DNA of 64,000 nucleotides from an uncultured delta proteobacterium. GTDB lineage: Bacteria; Myxococcota_A; Polyangia; Polyangiales; Houyiibacteriaceae. A program made the position numbers and the translations under genes. Below the pieces are notes generated by a model. That model saw only the letters and a list, made by a program, of their open reading frames with translations, was not told where the DNA came from and made no database searches. Of the stretch, positions 5,682 to 29,607 are shown one piece after another (positions within the stretch are counted from its first letter, which is position 1; each line of letters starts with the position of its first letter). The DNA lies in the NCBI GenBank assembly GCA_963699755.1, contig CAVOVB010000001.1:1408001-1472000 (forward strand), in the 5' to 3' direction.

Positions 5682-6875
5682 ATGCGCTTTTACGAATTCG
5701 AAGCGAAGCAACTTCTCGAAAAGCACCGGATTCCACTGGTTGAGAGCAGAGTTGTGAAGACAGCCGATGAAGCAGCGAACGCTGCCTCGGAACTCGGTGG
5801 CCCCGTCATCTTGAAGGCCCAGGCTATCGCGCCCGGTCTCGCCGCGACATCGATGAGAGAGGTTTCCGATGCGGCCAGTGCAAAGGCAGCGGCAACCGAG
5901 CTCCTCGGAATCGATGACGGCGGGCGCAAACCCAAAGGCATTCTGGTCGAGGCCAGGCCAGCGGGCGAAGCTGTGTACAGTTTGAGCTTCACCTACGATG
6001 GGACCATGAAGCGTCCCGTGGTGGCGGCCGCCGACATGGCCGGCAAGATCGATGATCTCGGCGACAGTCACCCGGACCGCATCGTCCGCCGGCACTTCTC
6101 TGCGCTCTATCCGTTCTCCGACTACATTGGCAAAGAGCTCGCCAGGTCGCTCGGCCTCGGAGGCAACGATCTCAACCGAATGACACGCATCGTCGCGGGG
6201 CTCGCCCGACTGTTTCTCAAATACGACTTGGCGGATCTGGACATCACCTCGCTGGTGAAGCTCGGGGACGGGAGCTTCATCGTCCGTGACGTGGAGGCGG
6301 ATCTGGAGATCGAAGCCCGTCACCGGCAAAGACCGATGCTCGACGAGCTCGGCTTTGCGAAAGAAGACCTTCGGCAGGTCCGCGAGCCCACTGCGTTCGA
6401 GCTTGAGGGCGCGAAGATCGACGAGGAGGACGTCCGAGGCATCATCAGCCCGATCGCCGAGTTTGACGGCAACATCGGCCTGGTCATTGGTGCCGGCGGC
6501 GGCTCGCTGACCTTGACCGATGCGGTGCGCAAGCACGGCGGTCGCCCCGCCAACTACGCGGCGATCGGAGGCAACCCCAGCGTCGACAAGGCTCGCAGGC
6601 TCACCAAGCTGGTGCTGAGCAAGCCAGGAGTCGACAAGATTGCGGTGATGTCCAACGTCGTGTCCAACACACGTGCTGACCTCGTCGCGCGCGGAGTCAT
6701 CAAGGGCATCATCGAATTGGGGTTCGAGCCGGCAGAGAAGATCCTGATCTTTCGTGTTCCGGGCGCCTGGGAGGCCGACGCGGCCAAGATCCTGCAGAAG
6801 TACGGGATCGAGTACTGCGATCGCACGGTGTCGATCAGCGAAGCGGCGAGACGCGCCGTCGAGAAAGTCGGGTAG
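5682..6875 (+). CDS. ADP-forming acyl-CoA ligase beta subunit (SucC-like, divergent)
   Basis: 'MRFYEFEAKQLL', 'GGPVILKAQ', 'DGNIGLV', 'PANY..IGGNP'; paired with a SucD-like gene. Confidence 0.8.
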   Translation: MRFYEFEAKQLLEKHRIPLVESRVVKTADEAANAASELGGPVILKAQAIAPGLAATSMREVSDAASAKAAATELLGIDDGGRKPKGILVEARPAGEAVYSLSFTYDGTMKRPVVAAADMAGKIDDLGDSHPDRIVRRHFSALYPFSDYIGKELARSLGLGGNDLNRMTRIVAGLARLFLKYDLADLDITSLVKLGDGSFIVRDVEADLEIEARHRQRPMLDELGFAKEDLRQVREPTAFELEGAKIDEEDVRGIISPIAEFDGNIGLVIGAGGGSLTLTDAVRKHGGRPANYAAIGGNPSVDKARRLTKLVLSKPGVDKIAVMSNVVSNTRADLVARGVIKGIIELGFEPAEKILIFRVPGAWEADAAKILQKYGIEYCDRTVSISEAARRAVEKVG

Positions 6876-12912: not shown

Positions 12913-12994
12913 GCGGCGAGATTAGCGCCTTGCCGCTCTGGTGTCAGGGGGGTGCTGGCGCGACCGCGCTCGGCGGTCTACTTGGATCACGGAC

Positions 12995-14215
12995 ATGCAA
13001 GAGACTCAGACATCGGTGGACGAGAGGCTGGAGATCCCGGCAATGGCCTCATCGCGCGGTCGAGTAGGCGCGCTCATCGCCGGCCTCGTCATGGTGGGAG
13101 CTGCGATGGGGATCTACTTCTTGACCCGTGGTCCAGACGCGAGTCCCTACCGGGCCACCGAGGTCACCAGGGCCTCGATCGTGAACGAGATTCGGGTGAC
13201 CGCAAGCATTGTCCTGACCGACCAAGTGGAGGTGCCCGCGCCCGTCGAGGGACAGCTCGTCGAGGTGGCCGTTCAATCGGGAGACCAGGTGGAGGAGGGT
13301 CAGCTTCTCGCGCGGCTCGACAAGGTGTCCGCCGAGGTTGCCTACCTCATCGCCCAGGCAGACTCGCAGGTCGCGCGCGCGCGCGTCTCCGAGGCGGAGG
13401 CTTCGGCGGAGCGCGCGAGCCGATCACTCGAGCGCACCAATCGGCTCGCCGACAAGGGGCTGGCGAGTGCGAGCGACCTGGAAGCGACGCGTTCCGAAAT
13501 GACCAAAGCGCGGGCGTCTCTCAAGGCGGCCCGAGCTGAGCACTTGGCGGCCCTCGAGCGTGTTTCTCTGCGAGGGCGCGAGCGAGACCAGACCGAGATC
13601 GTCGCTCCGCGCGCAGGACTCGTGCTCGAGGCCCCGTCTCATACCGGCATGGTCGTTGGGCCACGGACACGACTCTTCCGAATCGGTGCTCCGCTCGACC
13701 AGGTGAACGTCGAGGCGCCAATAGGCGAGGCCGACATCGGCGATATGTCGCTCGGCCTCAGCGCCAAGTTCGAGGTGCCCACGTATCCGGGCCGTATCTT
13801 CGAAGCCACCGTGAAGCACATCAGTCCCGACCCCAAGACCGAGCATGGGGCAATCTTCTACATGGTGAAGCTCGCCGCGAACAATCCAGATCACGCGCTC
13901 CTACCTGGCATGACCGCGCAACTCAGGATCAAGGTCGCCCAGGTCGACGATGTGCTGGCGGTGCGCGAGGCGACCCTTCGATTTACGCCTGAGGGCGCCC
14001 CTGAAGCGCCCCCCCGCAGTCGCGTCTGGCGGATCCGCGGGACGGAGCTGGAGGAGGTCCCGGTCGAGGTCGGTTTGTCCGACGGGGCACTCACCGAAGT
14101 CCGCCCGAGCAACCCCGACGACCTTCAAATCGCCGACTCGATCGCAATCGGGCTCGCGTTGGACGGTGACAGTGGCGCCGCGGCTCCTTCCTTGTCGCTC
14201 AAGGGACATCGATGA
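12995..14215 (+). CDS. Efflux periplasmic adaptor / membrane fusion protein (MacA-like)
   Basis: Single TM segment, lipoyl-like 'GDQVEEGQLLARLD', coiled coil, 'LLPGMTA', 'VEVGLSDG'; start ATG 12995 assumed. Confidence 0.88.
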   Translation: MQETQTSVDERLEIPAMASSRGRVGALIAGLVMVGAAMGIYFLTRGPDASPYRATEVTRASIVNEIRVTASIVLTDQVEVPAPVEGQLVEVAVQSGDQVEEGQLLARLDKVSAEVAYLIAQADSQVARARVSEAEASAERASRSLERTNRLADKGLASASDLEATRSEMTKARASLKAARAEHLAALERVSLRGRERDQTEIVAPRAGLVLEAPSHTGMVVGPRTRLFRIGAPLDQVNVEAPIGEADIGDMSLGLSAKFEVPTYPGRIFEATVKHISPDPKTEHGAIFYMVKLAANNPDHALLPGMTAQLRIKVAQVDDVLAVREATLRFTPEGAPEAPPRSRVWRIRGTELEEVPVEVGLSDGALTEVRPSNPDDLQIADSIAIGLALDGDSGAAAPSLSLKGHR

Positions 14216-14913
14216 CTGCTACGTCGATCGTCGAGGCTCGAGGCATTCGAAAGGTGTTTCCGAACATGACGGCGCCCGTGCTCGACGGGGTGAGCCTGCG
14301 CGTCGATCGGGGAGAAATCGTCGCGCTCATGGGGCCGTCGGGCTCGGGGAAGTCGACCTTGATGAACATCCTCGGCTGCCTCGACGGTCCGTCGGACGGT
14401 TCGTATTCGCTTGGGGGCAAGGACGTTTCCACCTTGAGCTCGCGGGAACGCGCCTGGGTACGACTTCACTACATCGGTTTCATCTTTCAATCGTTTTACC
14501 TGATCGCAGACCACACCGTCCTCGAGAACGTGACGCTCCCGCTCTACTACGCTGGCGTGGATCGGCACCAGCGCGAGGCGCGCGCCGTCGAGCTCATCGA
14601 GCGGGTCGGCTTGGGTCATCGATTAAGCCACAGGCCGGCGCAGCTTTCGGGCGGTGAGAAGCAGCGCGTGGCGATTGCCCGCGCCGTTTCGGGTCAGCCT
14701 CGCCTCCTCCTTGCCGATGAGCCCACTGGCGCCCTCGATACGAAGACCGGCAACGAGGTCATGGAGCTGCTTCTAGAGATCCACGAGGCCAGAGCCCTGA
14801 CCTTGATCATCGTGACGCACGACCCGGAGATTGCGCAGTATTGCCACCGTCAGATCTATCTGCGGGACGGAAAGATCGTCCCCGAGGGAGGTCGGCATGC
14901 CGCGGACGCGTAG
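14212..14913 (+). CDS. ABC transporter ATP-binding protein (MacB/LolD-like)
   Basis: Walker A GPSGSGKS, signature LSGGEKQRVAIARA, 'LLADEPTGALD', 'VTHD'. Confidence 0.95.
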   Translation: MTATSIVEARGIRKVFPNMTAPVLDGVSLRVDRGEIVALMGPSGSGKSTLMNILGCLDGPSDGSYSLGGKDVSTLSSRERAWVRLHYIGFIFQSFYLIADHTVLENVTLPLYYAGVDRHQREARAVELIERVGLGHRLSHRPAQLSGGEKQRVAIARAVSGQPRLLLADEPTGALDTKTGNEVMELLLEIHEARALTLIIVTHDPEIAQYCHRQIYLRDGKIVPEGGRHAADA

Positions 14914-16111
14914 TGAGGTCGTCGGACGTGCGGTCCGCACTGCGATCCGGAATCCCGGCCGCACGTTGCTCACGATGCTGGGGCTCGCAATTGGCGTCGG
15001 TGCATTCCTCGCCATGGTGAGCTTCGGAAGCGGAGCACGCAGCTCGGTGATGGAGCAGTTTGAAATCCTGGGAACCCGGGTCGTCTACATCTGGACGAAC
15101 ATGGGGCGTCGCGACTTCGGAGGAGCTGCGAGGCCGCTGACCGATGCCGATGTCGACGCGTTGCTGCGTGACTCGATGACGATCGAGAGGGTGGTTCCGC
15201 GCATCACCGAGGTGCAGAACGTGAAGTCGGTCTACCGAACGTCTCCCATCAACGTCACCGGAACGAAGCCGGACTTCGTCCACATTCGCGAGTGGCCGAT
15301 GCTGATGGGAGGGATGTTCGACGAGACCGACGTCGTGCAGCGGGCGAAAGTCGCCGTCATTGGCACCACCGTTGCGCGCGAGCTCTTCGGCCGCCGCGAC
15401 CCGGTGGGGCAGACCATCACGATTGGGGCCAACCTTCCGTGCCGAATCATCGGCGTTCTGGTTTCGAAGGGCGAACAAACCACCGGCGAAGACATGGACG
15501 AGATCGTCTTGATCCCGGCGACAACCTACCAAGCATTTCTCGGCACGCCCATCGGCTACCACGAGCTCATGGTGCAGGTCCGAGACCTCAGTCTCATCGA
15601 GACGGCCATGCTCGAAGCAGTGCCGATCATGCGACGCTCGCATCGTCTGGCCGATATCGAGGAAGACGACTTCAGGATGGCGAGCCCTGCGCAAGCTGCG
15701 CAGCTCGCACGCTTCGTTTCGACGGTTCTCACCGGCCTACTGGTCGGTATCGCCGCCGTGTCGTTGCTCGTCGGTGGAATCGGCGTGATGAACATCCAGT
15801 TGGTTTCGGTCGCCGAACGGACTCAAGAAATCGGCATTCGATCCGCGATCGGCGCCTCGCCGAGACAGATTTTGATGCAGTTTCTCGCTGAAGCCGTGGT
15901 CTTGTCGTTCACCGGTTCATTGGCAGGCGTGGCGCTAGGTTGGCTCGCGTCCACCATGGTCGGTCGGGCCATGACCTGGTCGGGCAATCTTTCGCTCCTG
16001 ATGATGATGGCTGCGGCTCTTTTCGGAACCAGTGTCGGCGTAGCTTTCGGGTATCTTCCGGCGCGACGCGCAGCGCAGCTCGAGCCCATCGAAGCGCTAC
16101 GCCATGAATGA
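14897..16111 (+). CDS. ABC transporter permease (MacB/FtsX family)
   Basis: 'RTLLTMLGLAIGV', 'SLLVGGIGVMNI..VSV.ERT.EIGIR.AIGA', 'PARRAA.L.PIEALR.E'; GGAGG RBS before ATG 14897. Confidence 0.93.
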   Translation: MPRTRSEVVGRAVRTAIRNPGRTLLTMLGLAIGVGAFLAMVSFGSGARSSVMEQFEILGTRVVYIWTNMGRRDFGGAARPLTDADVDALLRDSMTIERVVPRITEVQNVKSVYRTSPINVTGTKPDFVHIREWPMLMGGMFDETDVVQRAKVAVIGTTVARELFGRRDPVGQTITIGANLPCRIIGVLVSKGEQTTGEDMDEIVLIPATTYQAFLGTPIGYHELMVQVRDLSLIETAMLEAVPIMRRSHRLADIEEDDFRMASPAQAAQLARFVSTVLTGLLVGIAAVSLLVGGIGVMNIQLVSVAERTQEIGIRSAIGASPRQILMQFLAEAVVLSFTGSLAGVALGWLASTMVGRAMTWSGNLSLLMMMAAALFGTSVGVAFGYLPARRAAQLEPIEALRHE

Positions 16112-17427
16112 GGTGGAACATGAATATGGTCTGCGAAAGGAAGGGCGGAGGGGTGGCCGTGCTGGTCGTGCTCGCCGCGATGCTCGCGCCGACAGCGGTA
16201 TCGGCTGAAGTCGTCACACTGCAGAAGCTAGAGACGCTCTCGCTTCAGAACCAAGCGCATTGGGAGGCCGTCGAAGCGGGCGCGGTGCGGGCGGACGCGG
16301 AGGTCGACGCGGCTCGAGCGGGGAAGATGCCCACATTCTGGATGAACATCATGGGCGTCGCGGCACCTGGCTCTTACATCGAGCGTGTCCAAACCGTGGA
16401 CGGGCGCGTGGTCAACGTCCAGGCGTCCCCCACGGTTACGGAGAGCACAGCGTTTCGGCCAAACATTCGGTACGAGGGGACGATCGACATGCGCGCACCC
16501 ATTTATGACAGTCAGACCCGGGCCTCGATCAAGGCGGCAGAAGCGTATCGAGCCGCTGCGGAGGCCAACTCTGGCGCGTCTCGCGAGACTGTGCTCAGCA
16601 TGGTGCGCGCCGCCTATCTCGATTGGTTGGCGACCGAGCTGACACAGGACTTGGCGCTAGGCTCCGCAGAGGAGGCCAAGGCGCAGCGCGAACGCATCGA
16701 AGAACGGGTCTCGGACGGGGATCGCGCGCCTTCCGAGCTCGAAACTGCGCGCTACGAAGAGCTCCAGGCAGAGCTCGTTGCGGCGGATGCCAGGGCGAGA
16801 GCCGTCGCCGCCAAGCGGCTCTTGGAATCTGCGGTCGGAAGCGAGCTCTCCCCGGACGCAGAGCCGGACAGCTCGCTTCTGAGCATGGACTCCAGCGAGC
16901 TCGACTCGGATAGGGGTTGGGAGGCGGAAGCGCTCGAACGGCAACGCGACGCGGCGCTTCAAGAGGCGCGGATGCATCGCAAGGGTCGAGCCCCGGTCCT
17001 CGCCATCATTGGCCAAACCGGTCTGGCCGGCGTCAACGAGCGGGTGTTCCCGATGTATCGACTCGGTCTCAATCTTGCGGTGCCCCTCTGGGACGGAGGC
17101 AAGGCGGTCGCTCTGGCGCGCGCTGCCGACGCCCAAGGCAGCGAGTTTGGCGCGCGTGCCCGCGAAGCGCGCCTGGCCCGAAACGACGCGCTGCAACAGG
17201 CCCTCCTCGATCGGGAGCACAGCGAAGAGCAACTCGATCTCGCCGATCGCCTCGTCGCCGTTTCGGAGATTCGCGTGGAGCAAGCACAGACGAGCTACGA
17301 GCTCGGCGCAGGGGATGTCGAGACTGTCGCCGACGCGCGCGTCGCGCTCCGGGATGCCCAATCCCGCCGCGTTCAAATCCAAGTCGCCCGCGCCGATGCC
17401 ATTCTGCGGCTGGGCGGCAAAAACTGA
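16108..17427 (+). CDS. TolC-family outer membrane efflux protein
   Basis: Signal peptide, two repeated helical units with 'PIYD'/'PLWDGG' strands; last gene of the MFP-ABC operon. Confidence 0.8.
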   Translation: MRWNMNMVCERKGGGVAVLVVLAAMLAPTAVSAEVVTLQKLETLSLQNQAHWEAVEAGAVRADAEVDAARAGKMPTFWMNIMGVAAPGSYIERVQTVDGRVVNVQASPTVTESTAFRPNIRYEGTIDMRAPIYDSQTRASIKAAEAYRAAAEANSGASRETVLSMVRAAYLDWLATELTQDLALGSAEEAKAQRERIEERVSDGDRAPSELETARYEELQAELVAADARARAVAAKRLLESAVGSELSPDAEPDSSLLSMDSSELDSDRGWEAEALERQRDAALQEARMHRKGRAPVLAIIGQTGLAGVNERVFPMYRLGLNLAVPLWDGGKAVALARAADAQGSEFGARAREARLARNDALQQALLDREHSEEQLDLADRLVAVSEIRVEQAQTSYELGAGDVETVADARVALRDAQSRRVQIQVARADAILRLGGKN

Positions 17428-17428
17428 G

Positions 17429-19498
17429 CTAGAAACGAAAGACGTACTCGACCCAGAGCCAGTGCTCAGGGTTGGGCACGCGCGCTTGCGTCGACTCACG
17501 CTCATCTACAAACACGCGGAAGTCGTAGCGAAACCGCAATACGTCGCGGTCGCGCAAGTCGAGCGCGACGTCTAAATGCGCCCACAGCCGTTGGGGAAGG
17601 CGATGATTGTCCCAGACGTCGTCGAAGTCGTAGCGTACACGGAGGGCGATGCGCAGCCGGTCGAGCGGGCGGGTCGTGACGTTCAGGATTGCAGCCATGT
17701 CCTGCTGAAGCCGGTGGCCCCCGAGCTTCCCCTTCCAGCGGTACCGAAACTGCCCCGACAAGCCGACTCGGCCTTGTGGCGCATAGGCGAGCTGCGTCGC
17801 CGCCACGAACCGCTGGCCAGCACCATTTCGATACTCGCCCCAGGTTGCCCAGGTCCATGACGAGCTGATTCGCCAATCCGTACGCGCGAAGACGAGCGCG
17901 TTGAGCAGACGGGAAGAGAGCTGACGCCATCCATCGATGAGCGCGCGGAGCCCAACGTGGCGTCCAAGCCGAGCTGTTGCGCGAAGTCGAACCCCGGCCT
18001 CGTCCGTCGCCCGCAATCCGCCTAGCTCGTCCGGAGCCGAGACGGATCGCGCATAGGGATTCGCGAAACGCGAAGTGTAGTATCGCAGCGAAGCGTCGAG
18101 CTCGCTATTGGGCAGCGTGGTCACGCTTCGAAGCACGGCGCCGTATCCGCCTCTACCGGCAGGCTGAGCATCGAAGCTCCGCGCCACCTCGACGAAGAAG
18201 TCTTGCGAACCGAAGCCGAACGCTGCGTCTAGCCCCAGAGCTCCGAAAGGCCCACCGAACGGCCTGCGCGAAAAATCTTGGAAACCGAGCTCGGCGCCTC
18301 GGACGAGCCACCTCGGCACCGAGCCATAGCCGGTGATGCCGAGATGAGCCCGGTCCCTCCAGAAATAGCTCATGTTCGCGCCTGCAAGCCCCTCGGCGAA
18401 CATCGCCGGCAGGGTGGCGAACCTGGCTGTGCTCGCGGGTGCCCTTTGGTCGACTGTTCTCACGTAGACTCGCGGCGACACGCAGCCCGGGTCGGCATCT
18501 CGGCGAGGGTCGGCACAAGTAGCCGCATCGACGAGCTCGATCTGCGGAATGCGGTGGACTTGATACGAGCCCCATGCGTAGGCCTGCAGCCATCCTTTCC
18601 CAAGACGAAGCTCCTTCAATCCTATGGCGATGCCTGCAAGGCGATTCGTCCATGCGAAGTCGGGCGTGACCCTCGACTGCGGACCGGCCGAGCAGGGCGA
18701 TTGTGCAAGCTCTCCGGCCGCGCGTCTACATCGGAGCGCAAGCTCGTTGTCCCATCGAAGCTCGTAGTCACCGAACGAACCGTTCGGCGCCACCTGGTCG
18801 GTCACATCAAACGTCAGCCGTTGCCCGAAACCAATGCGATAGGTTCCTGCCACGATCTCCCAGTCGTCGTCCTTCCATTCGACATAAAGCTTGGGAACCT
18901 CGAACCGTACTCCTTCGGGCGCGGCGCTAAGCGCATTTCGATTCGGATCCCAGCGAACCCGACGCAAGCCGTTTCGCGTCAAGGCCCCGGCTATGCCGAT
19001 GTCCAAGTTGCCCAGCGTCCGGACCCGCGCCTGGAGCGCGGACGCGGGTGGTAGTCGGTCGTATCGGCCCGTCCATCGTCCTTGGAGCCGCAGCGAGCCC
19101 AGGGTTCGTGACCTTCCGCGCTCCGGATCGCGGAAGACGACGAATGCGCGAAGGGAACGCGCCAAGTTCGACTCCAGCACGCCGGCCTCGATCAACTCGT
19201 CCAAGCCGTGAATCGTCCCAGCCGCGTTGCGATAGGCGAGGAGCTCGTCGACCTGCGCGTAGTCCAGGTTTGGAAGTAGATACAAACTCTCCCGTCCGGC
19301 CCGATTGAGGTCGACGCGAGTCTGATGAAGGAGCAGGAGTGCGTTGAAGGACTGCTCCGAGATTTGCTCGGTGGCGAGGAGGTCGTACAGGTCTTCCTCG
19401 GTTTCGACGTCGATGAAGATTTCGTACTCGGCCGCAGATGCCGTGCGAGCGGAGAGCAGAAGAAGGAAGCCGAAGAACAGGGCGTGCCTCAGGAGCAC
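17429..19498 (-). CDS. Helix-hairpin-helix (ComEA-like) domain protein with predicted C-terminal outer-membrane beta-barrel
   Basis: Signal peptide ending ASA; 'RVDLNRAGRESLYLLPNL..AQVDELLAYR...GTIHGLDEL' HhH pattern; amphipathic strands; C-terminus 'WLWVEYVFRF' ending in Phe. Confidence 0.75.
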   Translation of the reverse strand: MLLRHALFFGFLLLLSARTASAAEYEIFIDVETEEDLYDLLATEQISEQSFNALLLLHQTRVDLNRAGRESLYLLPNLDYAQVDELLAYRNAAGTIHGLDELIEAGVLESNLARSLRAFVVFRDPERGRSRTLGSLRLQGRWTGRYDRLPPASALQARVRTLGNLDIGIAGALTRNGLRRVRWDPNRNALSAAPEGVRFEVPKLYVEWKDDDWEIVAGTYRIGFGQRLTFDVTDQVAPNGSFGDYELRWDNELALRCRRAAGELAQSPCSAGPQSRVTPDFAWTNRLAGIAIGLKELRLGKGWLQAYAWGSYQVHRIPQIELVDAATCADPRRDADPGCVSPRVYVRTVDQRAPASTARFATLPAMFAEGLAGANMSYFWRDRAHLGITGYGSVPRWLVRGAELGFQDFSRRPFGGPFGALGLDAAFGFGSQDFFVEVARSFDAQPAGRGGYGAVLRSVTTLPNSELDASLRYYTSRFANPYARSVSAPDELGGLRATDEAGVRLRATARLGRHVGLRALIDGWRQLSSRLLNALVFARTDWRISSSWTWATWGEYRNGAGQRFVAATQLAYAPQGRVGLSGQFRYRWKGKLGGHRLQQDMAAILNVTTRPLDRLRIALRVRYDFDDVWDNHRLPQRLWAHLDVALDLRDRDVLRFRYDFRVFVDERESTQARVPNPEHWLWVEYVFRF

Positions 19499-21114
19499 AA
19501 GGGATTCGCGGCGCCGGGCGTACCCAAGTCACCCTCTCCGTAGGCCTCCGTGGCATCACAGCGATTACCCAGCTCGTCGATCTGAGTTGCCACACCAGCG
19601 CTGGAGCGCTCGTAGCTCACCGAGTCGAGGACTTGCTCACCGACATGCAAGCGGATCGTCTCATCGCCGTTGTTCAGAGCCAGAGACAGCTCGGCATCTA
19701 CAGCAGGTAGCCCCCCATTTTCCAGGGGATTGGCGTTTCGCGCAAAGACGACGTGAGCCCCTGCCGCGACTTCCAGACAATCCTCGCGCTCGAGTGCGGC
19801 CGTGCTGGAGCTGCGATCGGAGAGCACGAGCCCGTTGAGGTCGACGGCGCTGTCGAAGCGAACCTCGACCCACTCGCCGTCGCGGTTCCCGACCTCGCGC
19901 GGGTTTGCCATCCACTCGCTGATCGAAGCCTCGCCCGGAACCGGACTGAGGATCGCCCGAGGCTCTCCCTCGTCGAGGCACATGCCTGGACCGAGGAGGA
20001 TCGGACAACTAGGGTTGGCGTCGCCGGGGGTCCCGAAGTTGCCGTTGATGTACTCGTCGTGCGGCAAGGCGAGGCAGACCTCGTCATTCGGGTCGAGCTG
20101 CCAGGCCACGCCTTCGACCGTGCTCTCATAGCTCACCTGGTCGAGGACGATGTCGCCCGCAGCTGCCACGATGCTCCGCGAACCGGAGTTGCCCAGGCTG
20201 AATCCTAGCTCCGCGTCGACGCGGGGAGCCGCCGTCGGACTCGCTCCGAAGACGACCCGTGCGCCCGCGCCGACCGGAAAACAGGTTTCCTCTTCGAAGA
20301 CCGTGAGCAAGGCATCGGGCGCCGGCCCGAGTTGAAAGCCGTTTAGGTCAGCTTCGGCACGGAAGAGAACCTCGACCCACTCGAAATCCGCATCTGCACC
20401 CTGGGGATCGGCCATCCATTCGCGGAGCTGCACCTCGCCTGGCTCTGGGAGTTGGATTGCCCGGCGGGTTCCGGATTCGAGGCATCCACCCGGCGGCTCC
20501 TCTACCACACAAGGGCTGTTCGGCGCGCCAGGGGTCCCGAAATTGCCTGGAAAAACCTCGTCGACCCCCTCCGGGGTCGTGCACCAGTGCTTCGCCTCGT
20601 CGTTGAGCTCGTGGTCCGGAGCGAACCTCCCGTCGAGCTCGAGCGCACGGCCGTCTGTGGTCCGAGCGTAGCCCACCTGATCGATGAGCACCTGGCCGCA
20701 GAGAAGGGCAACCCTTGCATCCGAGTTTCGAAGGCTGCCGAGCGTGCTTCCGTAACTGTAGTCGACGTGCGGCGGCATCGAGTCTGGCGCTGCATTTCCA
20801 ACGACCAAGTAGTCGCCGGCCGCGATCGAGAGGTCGAAGAAACGATGGGTGGTGGCGCCGGTCCCAGCCGAGCGGCTCGAGCTCAGTGTGAGACCGTCGA
20901 GCGAAAGCGGGACCTCGCTTGCGTTGAAGAGCTCGATGTACTCACCATCGCCGTCGCTCCCGTCGGGGTTGGCATGCAGCTCTGTGATGACGACGTCACC
21001 AGGCGCTAGGTCATCATCACAGGCGCCCGTGGCAGCGAGCTCCTCCCGCATGCAACTTCCGAGCACCAAGAGCAGGCAAACGAGCCCGCGCGCGCAATTC
21101 CAATCACCCGCCAT
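19489..21114 (-). CDS. Lipoprotein with three lamin-tail domains
   Basis: Lipobox LGSC; three repeats such as 'GDVVITELHANP...EYIELFN' ending GTPGAPN / GTPGDAN / GTPGAAN; GGGAGG RBS. Confidence 0.85.
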   Translation of the reverse strand: MAGDWNCARGLVCLLLVLGSCMREELAATGACDDDLAPGDVVITELHANPDGSDGDGEYIELFNASEVPLSLDGLTLSSSRSAGTGATTHRFFDLSIAAGDYLVVGNAAPDSMPPHVDYSYGSTLGSLRNSDARVALLCGQVLIDQVGYARTTDGRALELDGRFAPDHELNDEAKHWCTTPEGVDEVFPGNFGTPGAPNSPCVVEEPPGGCLESGTRRAIQLPEPGEVQLREWMADPQGADADFEWVEVLFRAEADLNGFQLGPAPDALLTVFEEETCFPVGAGARVVFGASPTAAPRVDAELGFSLGNSGSRSIVAAAGDIVLDQVSYESTVEGVAWQLDPNDEVCLALPHDEYINGNFGTPGDANPSCPILLGPGMCLDEGEPRAILSPVPGEASISEWMANPREVGNRDGEWVEVRFDSAVDLNGLVLSDRSSSTAALEREDCLEVAAGAHVVFARNANPLENGGLPAVDAELSLALNNGDETIRLHVGEQVLDSVSYERSSAGVATQIDELGNRCDATEAYGEGDLGTPGAANPLCS

Positions 21115-21180
21115 ATCGACCTCCCACCGTTGTGGTTTCGGGCGTTATCGGACGGCGGTTTGGTCGGTTTCGTCCGAGGC

Positions 21181-22293
21181 TCAGGGCAGGGAGGGAAGCG
21201 CAACCTGATCAGGCTCGGTGACGACGATTTGAAGCGTCCGGTAGTTGCCCTTCTCGTAGCGCTCCACCGTCCCTCGAACGGTCACAGGCTCTCGTCTGAA
21301 GCGTTCGATCCCGCTTTCGCGAAACACGTCGCGATCGAAGAAGATGACGGGAAAGCTCTTGTTGGGCGCGGTCTCCAAAGAGACGCGAACCAGGCCGCCG
21401 AAGTGCTGGATTCGGTCCACGGTGGAAAAGACCGTGACCTTCTTTCCTAGATTCTGTTCGAGTCGGTCCTGCACATCCCATTGCGTCAACAGGATGAAAT
21501 CTTCTCGGCGATTTGCTTCGTGCTCAAACGCACGAATGAAATCGGCGCGCGCGTCCCACCAGGCTTTGCGTTCGTCGTAGTCGCCATAGCCCTGGGCACT
21601 CGGATTCCAGATTCCGCGTTGCGCCTCTCGAGCGTCGGCTTCCGCGTGCGCGAGTTGATTGTGAAATCGGCGCGAGTATCCGTATTTCGTGAAGTACGGG
21701 CTCATCCCGGCGCGCACGCACTCGACGTTGTAGCTCGTCCAGCGACCGTTCTTCTTCACGAACGCGTACGCGAGGAGGCGTCCGTAGTTTCCCCGGATCT
21801 CCTTCGGGTCATCGCGTTCCAGGCGAACTTCGTCCGCACCTTTGAAAAAATTCTCCGCAAACTTAGAGGCCTCTTCCCCCATCGGCGTTCCAGCCTTCAC
21901 GGGCCGCGCCGCGTCGCCACGCTTTGTTCTCAGGTATTGTTTGAAATCTTTGGAGGCCGCTGCCCGGTCGGTCTTGCTGTGAAATCTCTCCTCGGTGTCG
22001 AGCGAAAGCAATCGAACGGAACCGTCGATCCCTTCGACCCGGATGGTGTCCCCGTCGATGACTGGATCGTCTGCCAGCCGGTACTCTCCGATCAGCAGAC
22101 CCTCTTGGTCCGATCCGCTTCGATCCCTTTCGCGTGGTCGCTCGGCAGCTCCGCTATGCGCCTCCGTGGCGTCGACCTGCTGCACTGGCGTCTCGACCGT
22201 AGCACCTCGGTCGCAACCCACGCTCCCGACGGAGATACACGCACTCGACAGCCAGATGCTCACCCACCTTCGCATCAGCCGTAACCTATTCAA
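21181..22293 (-). CDS. Thermonuclease (SNase-like) lipoprotein with C-terminal OB-fold
   Basis: 'VIDGDTIRV', 'VRLLSLDTEE', 'YGRLLAY', 'AEADAREAQRGIW'; C-terminal 'VTVRGTVERY...LQIVV'; start could be 22275. Confidence 0.88.
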   Translation of the reverse strand: MNRLRLMRRWVSIWLSSACISVGSVGCDRGATVETPVQQVDATEAHSGAAERPRERDRSGSDQEGLLIGEYRLADDPVIDGDTIRVEGIDGSVRLLSLDTEERFHSKTDRAAASKDFKQYLRTKRGDAARPVKAGTPMGEEASKFAENFFKGADEVRLERDDPKEIRGNYGRLLAYAFVKKNGRWTSYNVECVRAGMSPYFTKYGYSRRFHNQLAHAEADAREAQRGIWNPSAQGYGDYDERKAWWDARADFIRAFEHEANRREDFILLTQWDVQDRLEQNLGKKVTVFSTVDRIQHFGGLVRVSLETAPNKSFPVIFFDRDVFRESGIERFRREPVTVRGTVERYEKGNYRTLQIVVTEPDQVALPSLP

Positions 22294-22363: not shown

Positions 22364-23845
22364 CTATTTGTCCTCCGGCGACTCTACCCTGGCCAATCGA
22401 CGCGCTAGCCCCTTCTTGAAATCGAGCTCCATCTGTCGGCCGATCTGAATTCGCTGGGCTTGCGGTGAGCCCGCGCCGTGCAGTGACTCAGTGAGGTAGC
22501 CGACCGCGTTGCGGCCCATGGTCATGTTTTCGATCAAGCGCAGGATGCGGATGCGGGCTTCGGTTGGGACATCGGCTCGGCCTTTGAGGTACTTGTCGAG
22601 AAGCGCGCCGATCTCCGGGTGCTTCAGCTCTTTCTCCGATGGCGCGGTGCTGACCAGGCCACCTGCCAAGTCCTGCGCCAGCCTTCCGATTTCGAAAGGC
22701 ATCCTGGTGACGTGGTGCTTGCAGACGTTGGCGAGCATGTCGTCGTTCAAGTAGCAGCCTGACTTGGTGGGCCGTCCCTGGTATGACGACGCAATGCCCG
22801 CCGCGTACATCGTCTCGTTGAGATGAGTCATCTGCACGAGCTTGTCTTTGATGTGCGAGGCCTTGTCTATGCCGTTGTATTCCGCGATTTGCGCGGCTGC
22901 ACCAATCAGGACGTCGCCGACCCCCGTTTTGCAGACATAGCTGCGGCGGTGGTAGCAGGTGAATCGTTCGACCAGCATGGACGCAAACTCGTACTCGCCG
23001 CTCATGAAGACATGATCCCAGGGGACGAAGACCTCGTCGAGCACGACCATGGCCTCTTGGCCAGAGAAGTCCGCGTTGCCGACGTCGATTGAGCCCGCTT
23101 CCATGCTGCGGGTGTCGCAGGATTGTCGTCCGTAGATGTAGGTGATGCCAGGTGCATCCACGGGGAAGGCGGCCACCACTGCGTAATCTTTGTCGGCGAT
23201 CCCTAGGCGCATGGTCGGCATGGCGATGATCCAATGCGAGTTGATACAACCGGTCTGGTGGGCCTTGGCGCCCTTGAGCCAAAGGCCTTCGTCGTTGCGC
23301 TTGGTAATGTGTACGAAGAGATCGGGATCAATCTGTTGGTGCGGGGCTTTGCTCCGGTCTCCCTTGACGTCGGTCATCGCGCCGCCGACGACGTAGTTTC
23401 GCTCCTGCATCGTCGTCAAGAATGCCTTGAGGCGCTCGTGGTATGGCGTGCCGTGCTTCTCGTCGATTTCGTAGGTGACAGAATAGAGAGAATTGAAAGC
23501 GTCCATGCCGACGCAGCGCTGAAAGCATGTGCCGGTGTTCTGGCCGAGCTTGCGCTGCATGACGTTTTGGGCGACCAAATCTTCGGCACTTCGTGCAACG
23601 TGAAGGAATCGGTTGACGCGTTTGCCCGTCAGGGACGAGTCTGTTGTAGCGATCGCGGGCTCACGAAGTGCAAGCTCGTAGGTTTCGGCTACTGCGTTGA
23701 TCGAGGGCCGGATCATCGGATGATCGACCGGCTCGTCGACTAGCTCTCCGAAGAGAAAGACCCTCAGATTCCGGCCGCGAAGGCTGTCGATGTACTCGTC
23801 GCCCGTTTCGATTCGTTTCGGGTTCTCGCGGTCGCCGTCAGGCAT
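22364..23845 (-). CDS. abfD: 4-hydroxybutyryl-CoA dehydratase / vinylacetyl-CoA isomerase family
   Basis: Fe-S ligand motifs 'TGTCFQRC' and 'YHRRSYVCK'; 'AMTDVKGDRS', 'GAKAHQTG', 'ESLHGAGSPQAQ'; GGAGG RBS. Confidence 0.88.
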   Translation of the reverse strand: MPDGDRENPKRIETGDEYIDSLRGRNLRVFLFGELVDEPVDHPMIRPSINAVAETYELALREPAIATTDSSLTGKRVNRFLHVARSAEDLVAQNVMQRKLGQNTGTCFQRCVGMDAFNSLYSVTYEIDEKHGTPYHERLKAFLTTMQERNYVVGGAMTDVKGDRSKAPHQQIDPDLFVHITKRNDEGLWLKGAKAHQTGCINSHWIIAMPTMRLGIADKDYAVVAAFPVDAPGITYIYGRQSCDTRSMEAGSIDVGNADFSGQEAMVVLDEVFVPWDHVFMSGEYEFASMLVERFTCYHRRSYVCKTGVGDVLIGAAAQIAEYNGIDKASHIKDKLVQMTHLNETMYAAGIASSYQGRPTKSGCYLNDDMLANVCKHHVTRMPFEIGRLAQDLAGGLVSTAPSEKELKHPEIGALLDKYLKGRADVPTEARIRILRLIENMTMGRNAVGYLTESLHGAGSPQAQRIQIGRQMELDFKKGLARRLARVESPEDK

Positions 23846-23879
23846 CGTCCCTCCAAGCTGGGCTACTCTACCATGGGGC

Positions 23880-24749
23880 TCAAAGGGGGGCGCCCAGCAG
23901 CTCGGTCGAGGTTTCCTCCACGAAAAACCGGCCTTTGTCGTTCCGGGCGATTCGTCCGAGGGCGACCTCGTGGTCGTGCGTGAAGAAAAGACGTCCGCGC
24001 TGTTCGATCAAACGCGTTAGCAAGTCCCTCTTTTCATCGATCAGCTGCTCCGGATACCGGTCGTAGCCCATGGTGATCGGCAAATGCACCCAGGCACGCC
24101 CTGGGACGAGGTCCGCCACAAACACCACGGGACCATCGTCGCCCGGGATCTCGGTCAGCATGAGTCCGGGAGTATGCCCTTCGGAAAGCCAGAGCTTGTA
24201 GTCCGCGCCGAGGGTTTCGGAACGGGATCCTTTCACGACTTCGAGCCGCCCGCTCTCCTCGAGCAGAAGGGGAAGCTCAGGAATGAACGAAGCCCGGTCT
24301 CGAGCGTGTGGATGCTTGGCGCGCTGCCAGGCCTCCGCGCTGACCACGAATGTAGCCTTGGGAAATAGGAGGCGCATCGGCTCTTCCGGCTCATAGGCGT
24401 TGAGCAAACCCCCGGCGTGGTCGAAATGAAGGTGTGACAGGACGACGCAGTCGATGTCCTCGTGCGCGAACCCAGCTCGTGTCAGATTGTCGAGCAGGAC
24501 GTGGCGCTCCTCTTGGATGCCAAAGCGGTCGCGGAGCTGAGGTGGGAAGAAGGCACCGACCCCGGTCTCGAACAGGATGTGCCGACCGCCGTCTTCGATC
24601 AGCAATGCCCTGCACGCGAGCGGAATGCGATTTCGTTCGTCCGGTTCGACCCATTTGTGCCATAACGCGCGAGGAGCGTTTCCAAACATGGCGCCGCCGT
24701 CGAGGCGCTGTGAATTGCCTAGAATCGACCATGCGTTGCGTTTCCCCAT
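23880..24749 (-). CDS. MBL-fold metallo-hydrolase
   Basis: 'LDGGAMFG..P', '[10 protein letters not shown]', 'GHTPG', 'MGYD', 'FTHD'. Confidence 0.92.
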
Positions 24750-24785
24750 GGGCGAAGCCTAGCAGGGCAGGATGCGCGTTTGAAG

Positions 24786-25211
24786 TCAGCGCCTGACGAC
24801 GTACACGTTGCACGCTGCGTGTCGGACCACGCGCTCGGCGACGCTGCCGATGAGCCAGCGCTCCATGCCGCCTCGTCCATGAGAGCCCAGCACGATCAGA
24901 TCGACTCCATGGTTCTCTGCGTAATCGCAGATGGCCCTTGCTGGGGCATGGTCTGCAATCACGGCGACCTCGACCGGAACATCGGATAGAAACTGGTCTC
25001 GTAGCGCGGCCAGCTCGGCTGCGCGCGCAGCGTCGTCGGTCTTGGACACGGGCTCGAGCACGGCTTGCGGAGGAATGAAGGCTCGCGGGTCCGAGATGTG
25101 GATCAAAGTGACCTTGCTGCCGTTTGCTCTAGCGTATTCCCCAACCTCATCGAGCGCCCTCGTCGAGTGTTCCGAGAAGTCGATGCATGCGAGGATATGC
25201 TTTGCCGCCAT
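24786..25211 (-). CDS. Universal stress protein (UspA family)
   Basis: 'ILACIDFSEHS', 'DLIVLGSHGRGG...IGSVAERVVRHA.C.V'. Confidence 0.95.
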   Translation of the reverse strand: MAAKHILACIDFSEHSTRALDEVGEYARANGSKVTLIHISDPRAFIPPQAVLEPVSKTDDAARAAELAALRDQFLSDVPVEVAVIADHAPARAICDYAENHGVDLIVLGSHGRGGMERWLIGSVAERVVRHAACNVYVVRR

Positions 25212-26962: not shown

Positions 26963-28492
26963 ATGTCGCGAGACGATCCCACCGAAGTAACACGCCAACA
27001 CGTGTTCAAGCAGAAGGGCCTCTCCAACAAGGAGGAGCAGGCGCGCATCGTCGTGCTCGCCGGCAAGCTTGCGGGCGACAAGTATGCCATCGGAAAAGAG
27101 CTGACGCTCGGCCGCGGGGACAAAGCCGACGTCCAGATGGACGACACGCTCGTTTCGCGTGTCCACGTGCGCATCTTCCAGCACGAGAACGGATCCTATT
27201 TGATCGAAGACCTCGACAGTCGCAACGGCACGCAGGTCAACGGGATGTCGGTGAGTCGGCGGGTGCTCACGTACGGCGACAGAATCCAGATCGGCAGCTC
27301 CTTGCTTCTGTTTGCGCATCACGATCCCATGGAAGAACAGGTCGCGCAGCGGCGCAAGCTCGAGGCAATCGGGCGACTCGGAACGGGAGTGGCACACGAC
27401 TTCAATAATCTTCTTGGTGCCGTGAGGTCGAGCATCGATTTCTTGAACGGCCTTCCCGCGGAAACCAAGGTCAGCGACCCGGACGTGCGCGAAGCATTCG
27501 ACGACATCCGTTCGGCTGCGTCGGCCGCGACCGAGATGACCAGCCGCTTGCTTGGTTTCGCCCGCGAAGTCGAGCGAAGTCATACCGAAGTCGACCTCTC
27601 AGAGCTATGCCACCATGTCGTGCAGCTTGCGCGTCACACCTTTCACCGAAGCATTGCGATCGAGGCCCGGATCGATCGAGGCCTCAAGGTCAGTGGCGAT
27701 CGTGGTCAGCTCCATCAGCTCCTCATGAACCTGCTGATCAACGCCCGCGATGCGATGCCCAACGGGGGGAAGCTCAAGCTCACTGCCAAGAAGGCCGATC
27801 CAATCGACCTCGAGAAGGCGCCCCTCAACCCCTTGGTTGCGCATGCGATCATCACCGTGGAGGACACCGGCATCGGAATGGACGATGCAACGCGAGAGCG
27901 CGCGTTCGATCCCTTCTTCACGACGAAGGGCGACCAGGTTGGTGCAGGCCTGGGTCTCGCCGCGGTGTACGAGATTGCGAAATCGCACAACGGCCACATC
28001 ACTCTGCACAGTGTGCCGAACCGGGGCAGCGAGTGTCAGGTTGTCTTCCCACTCACGAGCGAGCGGACCGTAGTGCCCACGGAGCCGAGTCTTCCGGCGA
28101 TCAAGCTACCGCGGACTCAGCTTCTGATCCTGCTGGTCGACGATGAAGACGTAGTCCGGCGAAGCGCGGGTCGTGTGGTCCGCCAGAGCGGCCACCGCGT
28201 GATCTTCGCACGCGGCGGCGACGAGGCGCTGCGGATCTACAATGAGACACAGCCGCGGCCCGACCTGGTCTTGATGGACCTCAACATGCCTGGGATGACG
28301 GGCGATCTGGCTTTCAGGAAGCTGAAGGAAGTCGATCCCGAGGCGCCGGTGGTATTCGTCTCGGGCTACTGGGACCGCGACCTCGAGCGCGAGCTTCGCG
28401 GCATGGGGGCGCTCGGCTTCGTTCAAAAACCCTACGAAGCTGCTACGCTCCGGGACGCCATCGTTCAGGCGATGACCTCCCAGACTTCATGA
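26963..28492 (+). CDS. Hybrid sensor histidine kinase: FHA - HisKA - HATPase - receiver
   Basis: FHA 'LGRG...VSRVH...SRNGT'; H-box AHDFNN; 'NLLINARDAM', 'DTGIGM', 'FFTTK', 'GLGL'; receiver 'VDDE','MDLNMP','KP'; start 26945 or 26963. Confidence 0.92.
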   Translation: MSRDDPTEVTRQHVFKQKGLSNKEEQARIVVLAGKLAGDKYAIGKELTLGRGDKADVQMDDTLVSRVHVRIFQHENGSYLIEDLDSRNGTQVNGMSVSRRVLTYGDRIQIGSSLLLFAHHDPMEEQVAQRRKLEAIGRLGTGVAHDFNNLLGAVRSSIDFLNGLPAETKVSDPDVREAFDDIRSAASAATEMTSRLLGFAREVERSHTEVDLSELCHHVVQLARHTFHRSIAIEARIDRGLKVSGDRGQLHQLLMNLLINARDAMPNGGKLKLTAKKADPIDLEKAPLNPLVAHAIITVEDTGIGMDDATRERAFDPFFTTKGDQVGAGLGLAAVYEIAKSHNGHITLHSVPNRGSECQVVFPLTSERTVVPTEPSLPAIKLPRTQLLILLVDDEDVVRRSAGRVVRQSGHRVIFARGGDEALRIYNETQPRPDLVLMDLNMPGMTGDLAFRKLKEVDPEAPVVFVSGYWDRDLERELRGMGALGFVQKPYEAATLRDAIVQAMTSQTS

Positions 28493-29607
28493 TCAAGTAC
28501 ATCGGCTCGAAACGGGTACTCGTACCGCACATCGTGCGCGCCGTTTCGGCGTTTCCCGAATCGGGACGCGTGCTCGACTTGTTTTCCGGCACCTCACGGG
28601 TAGCGCGTGGGCTCAAGCAAACGGGCCGTTACGTGATCGCGAACGACCACTTGGCATACGCGTCGACGCTCGCCCTTTGTTATGTGCAGGCCGACGCCGA
28701 TCGCTGGCACGACGAAGCGCGGCAACTGGTCACGCAGCTTTCGCAAGTCAAACCAGAAGCTGGCTACTTCACCAAAGCGTTCTGCGAGGATGCCCGGTAT
28801 TTCCAACCCAAGAACGGCGCACGCATCGACGCCATTCGCGAAGAGATCGTCAGTCGCAACTTGCCCAGCGAGCTAGAGGCGATCGCCCTGGTGTCGCTCA
28901 TGGAAGCTGCCGATCGCGTCGATTCCACGACGGGTGTGCAAATGGCCTACTTGAAACAGTGGGCCTCGCGGGCGTCCAACGATCTCGAGCTTCGGATTCC
29001 GGCGATTCTCCCAGGTCCTGGCGAAGCTCTACAGCTCGATGCGGTCGAGGCGGCGTCGCGGGTCCAGGCGGACATCGCCTATGTCGACCCGCCGTACAAC
29101 CAGCACAGCTATATGGGCAACTATCACATTTGGGAAAGCCTGGTGCGCTGGGACAAGCCCGACACGTACGGGATCGCGAACAAGCGCGTGCACTGCAAGG
29201 AATACAAAAGCGACTTCAACTCCAAGCGTCGCATCCGACAGGGGCTAGAAGCGGTTTTCGAAGCAGTGCGCTGCAAGCACCTCCTCGTCTCATTCAACAA
29301 CGAAGGGCACGTTGACCCTGAAGAGATGATCGAGCTCCTGTCCAAACGAGGGCATGTCGGCGTCGTCGCCGTCGACTTCAAACGATACGTAGGGGCGCAG
29401 ATCGGTATCCACAATCCGAACGGCGAGAAAGTCGGCCGTGTAAGCCACTTACGAAACAAGGAGTACCTCTTCGTCGTGAGCACTCTCCGAAACACGGTTG
29501 ATTCGGTGGTCGAGGCCATCGAGTCGAGCATCGAAAGTGCGGCGCTTGCGTCGCGACCGCAGAAGCGCAAAAGGAAGGGTCATGAATCTGAACGACGTGT
29601 TGAGTGA
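28489..29607 (+). CDS. DNA adenine (N6) methyltransferase, D12/Dam-like class
   Basis: 'KYIGSK', motif I 'DLFSGT', 'IAND', catalytic 'YVDPPY'; ATGA overlap with the kinase stop. Confidence 0.9.
   Translation: MIKYIGSKRVLVPHIVRAVSAFPESGRVLDLFSGTSRVARGLKQTGRYVIANDHLAYASTLALCYVQADADRWHDEARQLVTQLSQVKPEAGYFTKAFCEDARYFQPKNGARIDAIREEIVSRNLPSELEAIALVSLMEAADRVDSTTGVQMAYLKQWASRASNDLELRIPAILPGPGEALQLDAVEAASRVQADIAYVDPPYNQHSYMGNYHIWESLVRWDKPDTYGIANKRVHCKEYKSDFNSKRRIRQGLEAVFEAVRCKHLLVSFNNEGHVDPEEMIELLSKRGHVGVVAVDFKRYVGAQIGIHNPNGEKVGRVSHLRNKEYLFVVSTLRNTVDSVVEAIESSIESAALASRPQKRKRKGHESERRVE

Follow-up and report, generated by a model that had tools for sequence, protein, structure and literature searches.

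In Gram-negative bacteria, knowledge of how DNA-derived material crosses the outer membrane comes chiefly from pilus/secretin systems and, more recently, from the TonB-dependent ddb locus of Bacteroides. Here, we analysed a three-gene operon (genes A, B and C, Table 1) in a 64,000-nt stretch of DNA from an uncultured delta proteobacterium (contig CAVOVB010000001.1), hereafter called the window, whose positions are used for all coordinates. An initial annotation, made from the sequence alone, described the products as a nuclease lipoprotein, a lipoprotein of lamin-tail domains (LTD) and a protein joining a ComEA-like HhH domain to a barrel, and proposed that they import extracellular DNA. We find a real and widespread module around a new barrel family, that of gene C. 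This module is apparently uncharacterised: in the literature searched, which did not extend to subscription papers and supplements, no publication describing the barrel or the operon was found.

The Bacteroidales DNA-utilisation locus ddbABCDEF includes DdbC, annotated as TonB-dependent, and DdbD, a DUF5689 protein (PMC12478041). Both loci encode an outer-membrane protein (a transporter in ddb, a predicted barrel and putative transporter here) with an adjacent partner and exported nucleases, and both have subtypes that differ in their nucleases. However, the locus studied here has a predicted 24-strand barrel, a helical HhH domain instead of a plug, an LTD partner and nucleases of the SNase, PLD and metallo-beta-lactamase (MBL) types. 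Since C does not resemble TonB-dependent transporters (TBDT) and B is an LTD rather than a DUF5689 protein, the operon is not a member of the ddb group. With DNA uptake through ComEA and type IV pili (PMC3879209) it has in common the HhH fold and a presumed periplasmic location of this domain at the outer membrane. In contrast to ComEA, the HhH domain of C is fused to the barrel, is acidic and has neither the GIG hairpin nor the Lys pair; canonical ComEA, PilQ and ComEC are encoded separately in the genome.

A barrel and an HhH protein have also been proposed for DNA entry in Riemerella anatipestifer (RA0C_RS04915/04920/02645; PMC8459023). By description, these are separate proteins of other families, namely a carboxypeptidase-regulatory-domain barrel, a DUF5689/DUF5017 protein and RS02645, with HhH at amino acids 236-301; Porphyromonas gingivalis and Riemerella both use separate HhH proteins (PMC11532111, PMC8459023). 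Finally, extracellular nucleases of the ExeM/Xds type likewise bring LTD, OB and nuclease modules to the cell envelope (PMC6085458). These nucleases and NucT are single proteins and are not known to have a dedicated barrel, whereas here the modules are distributed over separate genes that are linked to a barrel. NucT of Helicobacter pylori, a PLD nuclease, has reportedly been linked to purine salvage from DNA.

Gene C is linked to lamin-tail and nuclease genes in many families of the Myxococcota

A search of 301 Myxococcota genomes with a 110-sequence profile found gene C in 77 of them (about a quarter), 62 of which lie outside the genus of the window. Several well-sampled families had none (0/23, 0/26 and 0/18 genomes), and no relatives of C were found in plasmids or viral contigs. 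Close homologs are assigned by their sources to Polyangiales or Myxococcales; one of them, at 61% identity, is from Myxococcales bacterium SG8_38 (L173). Within the genus, A, B and C are present in 24 of 24 relatives, and the operon is single-copy at a stable site; the genes are neighbours on one contig in 20 of these relatives, and contig ends separate them in the other four. Genus-level synteny was set aside as evidence of linkage because an unrelated gene, hpaB, is equally kept upstream in 16 of the 16 loci fetched, as would be expected if the three genes were unrelated neighbours held by ordinary synteny.

Outside the genus, we studied 60 loci from 58 of the 62 genomes (all but G285, G293, G201 and G083), representing 24 families; their genes were called by our own script and then clustered. 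An LTD-cluster gene lies at most two genes from C in 52 of the 60 loci (adjacent in 45), and a nuclease gene at most three genes away in 48. The 47 untruncated loci have an LTD gene in 43 cases, a nuclease gene in 42 and both in 42, and the two partners are found together in 19 of the 24 families. Almost all LTD-cluster proteins scanned (37/39) exceed the Pfam LTD cut-off. As a genome holds at most 39 LTD matches (one in this genus), chance would account for such adjacency in a few percent of cases at most. Related genomes are not independent in these linkage counts; however, the gene order varies, with at least six arrangements (SNaseOB-LTD-C, as here, LTD-SNaseOB-LTD-SNase-C, PLD-C-LTD(-MBL), C-LTD-SNase, LTD-C-SNase and C-LTD-MBL) plus a divergent form. 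Moreover, among 80 metagenome loci, LTD and SNase genes are present in all 46 that have at least 3 kb upstream, these being close relatives. Ordinary synteny is contradicted by linkage in 19 families with differing orders and flanks, and we give it hardly any credence.

The conserved core is the barrel and the LTD protein, and the nuclease is exchangeable. Thus, the co-occurrence in other genomes for which the initial annotation had asked is borne out, and the fixed three-gene composition that it described is just one variant.

The five-gene form is carried by Plesiocystis pacifica SIR-1 and Enhygromyxa salina SWB007. One genome (G291; L071, L084 and L100) has three barrel operons of two architectures, PLD-C-LTD and LTD-C-SNase. 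The barrels of family f44 (L072, L087 and L096) stand alone, two of them divergent from a cardiolipin-synthase-like gene with two PLD domains, and may form a functionally shifted subfamily. In five loci (L064, L066, L068, L069 and L106), TolQ/ExbB-, TolR/ExbD- and TonB-like genes lie a few kb from the barrel gene, mostly on the opposite strand. At L134:~6585-6683, an N-gap fuses an RNA-polymerase-subunit-like open reading frame (ORF) to the tail of an LTD gene, a scaffolding artefact that represents no true loss of the operon.

Unrelated nuclease folds occupy the same position

Of the 60 loci, 26 have small SNases as partner nucleases, 16 single-domain PLD proteins, 10 ComEC-type MBL proteins and eight SNase-OB proteins. 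All 14 small SNases tested match Pfam SNase and all 11 PLD partners tested match PLDc_2; three tested PLD partners match NucT models, and the one compared with structures matches MitoPLD/Zucchini, Nuc and NucT. Four of the five MBL partners tested match the C-terminal part of ComEC, below the cut-off. The active-site motifs are kept throughout (DGDT in 26/26, HxKxxxxD..GSxN in 16/16 and HxHxDH in 13/13 proteins). In a quick IQ-TREE phylogeny of 59 barrels (L098 and L111 left out), which is no test of co-evolution, the partner type tracks clades joined by long branches, which we take to mean that the nuclease was exchanged and its link to the barrel was retained. The PLD and MBL folds can cut other phosphodiesters, whereas SNase is specific to nucleic acid, so that nucleic acid is the simplest shared substrate. 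Three unrelated folds in one slot thus point to a function on nucleic acid and fit the processing of extracellular DNA.

The ComEC-like MBL partners were also considered as substitutes for a missing ComEC domain in family f27, and this was rejected: in five of the five loci (L194-L198) comEC consists of two genes, one for the membrane part and, next to it, one for its own MBL. Nuclease activity has reportedly been found for the MBL domain of ComEC. Six loci (L162-L164, L168, L169 and L179) have short matches to the small-SNase hidden Markov model (HMM) beside C on the opposite strand.

The same enzymes could serve a module that clears or remodels extracellular DNA (biofilm matrix or prey lysate) or destroys foreign DNA, with no import and with C as a scaffold. 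Such roles belong to exported nucleases like ExeM (PMC6085458); moreover, the matches of the PLD partner include DISARM DrmC models, and the SNase matches the PADLOC SNc+LTD model. This explanation would leave unaccounted for a large conserved barrel with near-invariant charged residues (R472, R498, E437 and E500). In the PADLOC model set, neither B nor C has a match and A has only a partial match to the SNase domain. The operon is also unlike defence islands, which are patchy in distribution, in being single-copy, at a stable site and present in all 24 genus genomes. Clearance or defence without import seems to us quite improbable.

Gene C encodes a predicted outer-membrane beta-barrel

The AlphaFold model of C (29 sequences, pLDDT 70.8, pTM 0.71) has helices at residues 34-119 followed, by our count, by 24 long strands. 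Loops of 4-68 residues follow the odd strands and turns of 2-5 residues the even ones; since this is the usual outer-membrane pattern, the N-terminal domain would be periplasmic. The strands are amphipathic, with alternating hydrophobic and polar faces, and the C-terminal residue is Phe in 139 of 168 family members. All the top Foldseek matches listed are outer-membrane barrels, which bears out, as a prediction, the barrel-like C-terminus reported earlier. C shares the general barrel fold with FimD (the top match, at a TM-score of only 0.36), TonB receptors, LptD, MtrB, AlgE and SlpA, at 6-11% identity and query TM-scores of 0.23-0.38, and with such values it has no close solved relative or family assignment. 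The best-conserved motifs sit in the long loops.

TonB-dependent transporters have 22 strands and an N-terminal plug domain. No TonB-type plug was seen in the model of C, whose N-terminal domain is helical, and C matched no transporter family of Pfam or NCBIfam, TBDT included. An arginine-rich lumen, suggested by the strands of the window's protein (29 K/R against 22 D/E), was rejected for want of family-wide support. No fusion of the barrel with a length of 1386-3955 amino acids was found, a weak line of evidence. Leads for related barrels in the Atlas, given by feature scores and not by alignment, are an uncharacterised Bacteroidota HhH-barrel (score 0.97), Spirochaetota and DUF6029 clusters.

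The HhH domain is degenerate and the module coexists with the pilus route

HHH_3 falls below its cut-off with the single C sequence (E 0.003), and the family profile matches ComEA structures (8dss) with an E-value of 9e-14. The ComEA-like fold seen earlier is thus confirmed, while its DNA-binding motif is degenerate. The hairpin consensus of the family is LP[GN]LTYxxVD, with GxG in 3 of 168 homologs and GxG followed by K/R in just one. Of 162 members, 134 have an HhH domain with a net negative charge (median -3 for the family), and the genome's two true ComEA proteins have net charges of +6 and +7. In Vibrio cholerae, a Lys pair and the GIG hairpin are needed for DNA binding by ComEA (PMC3879209). 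The supposition that the HhH domain of C binds DNA finds no support here, and a ComEA-style ratchet is doubtful given the near absence of the motif and the acidity of the domain, which is probably a structural or protein-binding cap. Of all our results, this one weighs most against the mechanism first proposed.

The genome of the window encodes PilQ, ComEC and two canonical basic ComEA proteins. In 48 carriers of C (phylum scan and genus set), PilQ is above the cut-off in 45 and ComEC is present in 46, which contradicts the earlier view of a system without a type IV pilus or secretin: the module supplements pili instead of replacing them, and coexists with the pilus route. The presence of ComEC and the ComEA fold of the HhH domain would also suit a role of the module as the outer-membrane entry for transforming DNA that is passed on to ComEC; the nuclease would then trim the DNA as it enters, along the lines suggested for the barrel system of Riemerella. 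The ComEC-like MBL partners agree with this, as does one genome in which a canonical double-HhH ComEA gene stands directly upstream of the barrel gene (L070:7381-7899), and transformation of Riemerella requires a barrel and an HhH protein (PMC8459023). However, most carriers have PilQ and this genome has the two basic ComEA proteins, long DNA would not be expected to survive nucleases of the SNase, Nuc and MBL types, and genomes with an MBL operon retain their own ComEC MBL gene beside comEC. Apart from the ComEA at L070, no competence gene was recurrent in the scanned loci. We hold an entry route for transformation to be highly unlikely.

Genes A and B encode putative surface lipoproteins

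A matches Pfam SNase (PF00565) with an E-value of 5e-12 and 46.6 bits against a cut-off of 21. Its residues D80, D82, R94, D99, E102 and R172 align to D19, D21, R35, D40, E43 and R87 of thermonuclease (SNase), which we take to be the catalytic and Ca-binding residues, and at each position at least 62 of the 63 orthologs have the same residue, so that the intact-looking motifs described at first stand. An OB fold is likely for the C-terminal domain: eight of 31 aligned ortholog pieces match PF01336 at E <=0.5 (best 6e-4), a weak support that does not extend to the window's own piece, which had no match in the same scan, and a profile comparison with aspartyl-tRNA synthetase was not significant (E 0.37).

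The three lamin-tail domains assigned to B are confirmed by three Pfam LTD stretches (E 9e-26) and by a structure model (pLDDT 88.9) resembling the tail domains of lamin A/C and lamin B1; the lipobox Cys21 is conserved in at least 90%. Three genus orthologs have two LTDs, and all keep the last one. A predicted complex between residues 24-689 of C and residues 209-541 of B scored 0.01, which is evidence in neither direction. Fusions of LTD and nuclease are known, for example ExeM (PMC6085458 and PMC8289736), and are further represented by the SNc+LTD model of PADLOC and by LTD-PLD genes in two of our loci. The latter (L060:4932-7892 and L061:4718-7777, directly downstream of the barrel gene) encode a protein of ~1000 amino acids with a PLD domain and weak LTD and fn3 matches (L060 scanned).

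By our rule (Cys-hydrophobic-Arg), a C-terminal tail like MYXO-CTERM is present in 22 of the 58 LTD partners, and by a crude rule 24 of the 58 LTD partners and 17 of 27 small SNases have lipoboxes, most LTD partners without the tail resembling lipoproteins. In Myxococcus xanthus, the MYXO-CTERM tag leads to surface display via type II secretion (PMC11980579). These tails and lipoboxes make surface exposure of A and B plausible.

The many lipobox-bearing partners would also be expected if C were an exporter or anchoring platform (Slam-type or usher-like) that displays the nuclease and LTD lipoproteins, its acidic HhH domain binding the cargo, and if the products of digestion entered through ordinary porins. 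The barrel equals ushers in size and has FimD as its top fold match, and the degenerate HhH domain suits such a role. However, a general exporter should have varied cargo, and the recurring neighbours are nucleases and LTD proteins only; moreover, the 22 partners with MYXO-CTERM-like tails would, by the M. xanthus precedent, leave by type II secretion. An exporter is in our estimation unlikely, though it is the strongest of the alternatives considered.

A proposed model of surface DNA digestion and import

We propose that the operon serves digestion of DNA at the cell surface and import of the fragments for nutrition, with a probability of about 0.55. A, a predicted lipoprotein nuclease, would cleave extracellular DNA or RNA on the cell surface, with B as a likely membrane-anchored accessory. 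C would pass the short products into the periplasm, probably passively because its model shows no plug of the TonB type, and the products would there be used as nutrients. We infer the side of the outer membrane faced by A and B, the inward conduction by C and the nutritional purpose. In support of the proposal, the genome has a CNT nucleoside transporter, and ddbABCDEF is a precedent for such a locus, to which the operon would be analogous although its components differ.

Several observations weigh against this proposal. The genome has purM and no match to the 5'-nucleotidase family PF02872, and no phosphate or nucleoside-use gene cluster was recurrent among the scanned neighbours. The barrel model is only moderate, with an insert (residues 222-285) that is not clearly modelled, and the barrel family is not net basic (median charges -5 and -1 for its two halves), its 13 conserved K/R hardly exceeding its 10 conserved D/E. 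The HhH domain lacks the hairpin and is acidic, as detailed above, and B is strongly acidic too. LTDs are common in surface proteins of the Myxococcota, and the LTD of ExeM is dispensable for activity in vivo (PMC6085458). HMM support for the MYXO-CTERM-like tails is weak (7/22, one above the cut-off). Finally, eight of the 60 loci have neither partner, three of these being cut by contig ends near the barrel gene and the eight including all three fetched loci of family f44.

Operon layout and neighbouring genes

The three co-oriented ORFs, with a 66-bp gap between A and B and a 10-bp overlap of B and C, are as first described, according to the ORF calls and an independently assembled metagenome contig. 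The latter (L246) spans A, B and the greater part of C (window 25247-17735) and matches with no gaps at 99.35% identity; the frames are therefore not assembly artefacts. Neither a promoter of the sigma-70 type nor a convincing terminator was detected.

Table 1. Features of the operon, in window positions
Feature	Position	Strand	Description
Gene A	21181..22293	-	370 aa; predicted lipoprotein (SVGC, Cys27); SNase domain; OB fold likely at the C-terminus
SNase domain of A	21598..22062	-	about residues 78-232; D80, D82, R94, D99, E102, R172
Likely OB-fold domain of A	21184..21510	-	residues 262-370; weak support
Gene B	19489..21114	-	541 aa; predicted lipoprotein (LGSC, Cys21); three lamin-tail domains; acidic, -11.6 per 100 aa
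Gene C	17429..19498	-	689 aa; signal peptide, degenerate ComEA-fold HhH, predicted 24-stranded outer-membrane beta-barrel, terminal Phe
HhH domain of C	19139..19324	-	residues 59-120; GxG hairpin and Lys replaced (LPNLDYAQVD); presumably periplasmic
Predicted barrel of C	17435..19099	-	residues 134-688; long-loop motifs GFGQRLTFD and NPYARP..DE..G.RARDE

An efflux operon (RND-type adaptor, ABC ATPase, permease and TolC-like protein; window 12941-17427, + strand) converges on C with a 1-bp gap. It adjoins C in just five of 16 genus loci and is probably unrelated to it. Upstream of A by 70 bp and co-oriented with it lie genes for an hpaB-like flavin monooxygenase, a YtnP-like MBL and a USP-like protein (window 22364-25211, - strand). 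The position of hpaB beside A is conserved in the genus only, and the two may share a transcript; between them, locus L034 has an ORF resembling by eye a zinc alcohol dehydrogenase (L034:4959-5981), and several other genus loci have gaps of ~1 kb at this site. A probable DNA adenine methyltransferase gene, recognised by eye (window 28489-29607, + strand), overlaps the end of a hybrid histidine kinase gene.

Biological meaning

In a broader and more tentative reading, which is possible but which we would not expect to hold, C founds an undescribed class of nucleic-acid outer-membrane channels, independent of pili and TonB and fed by swappable surface nucleases. This class would extend across the Myxococcota, would probably be related to the uncharacterised HhH-barrels of Bacteroidota and Spirochaetota, and would offer predators and sediment dwellers a pathway of their own for feeding on DNA. 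The import proposed above would in itself be a third solution beside the pilus/secretin systems and the ddb locus, based on a barrel family without a solved relative and present in about a quarter of the sampled Myxococcota genomes. Even as an exporter of lipoproteins, C would represent a new secretion barrel. The import proposal is directly testable because P. pacifica SIR-1 and E. salina SWB007 carry the five-gene form, and it bears on the recycling of phosphorus and nitrogen from extracellular DNA and on the fate of prey DNA in predators.

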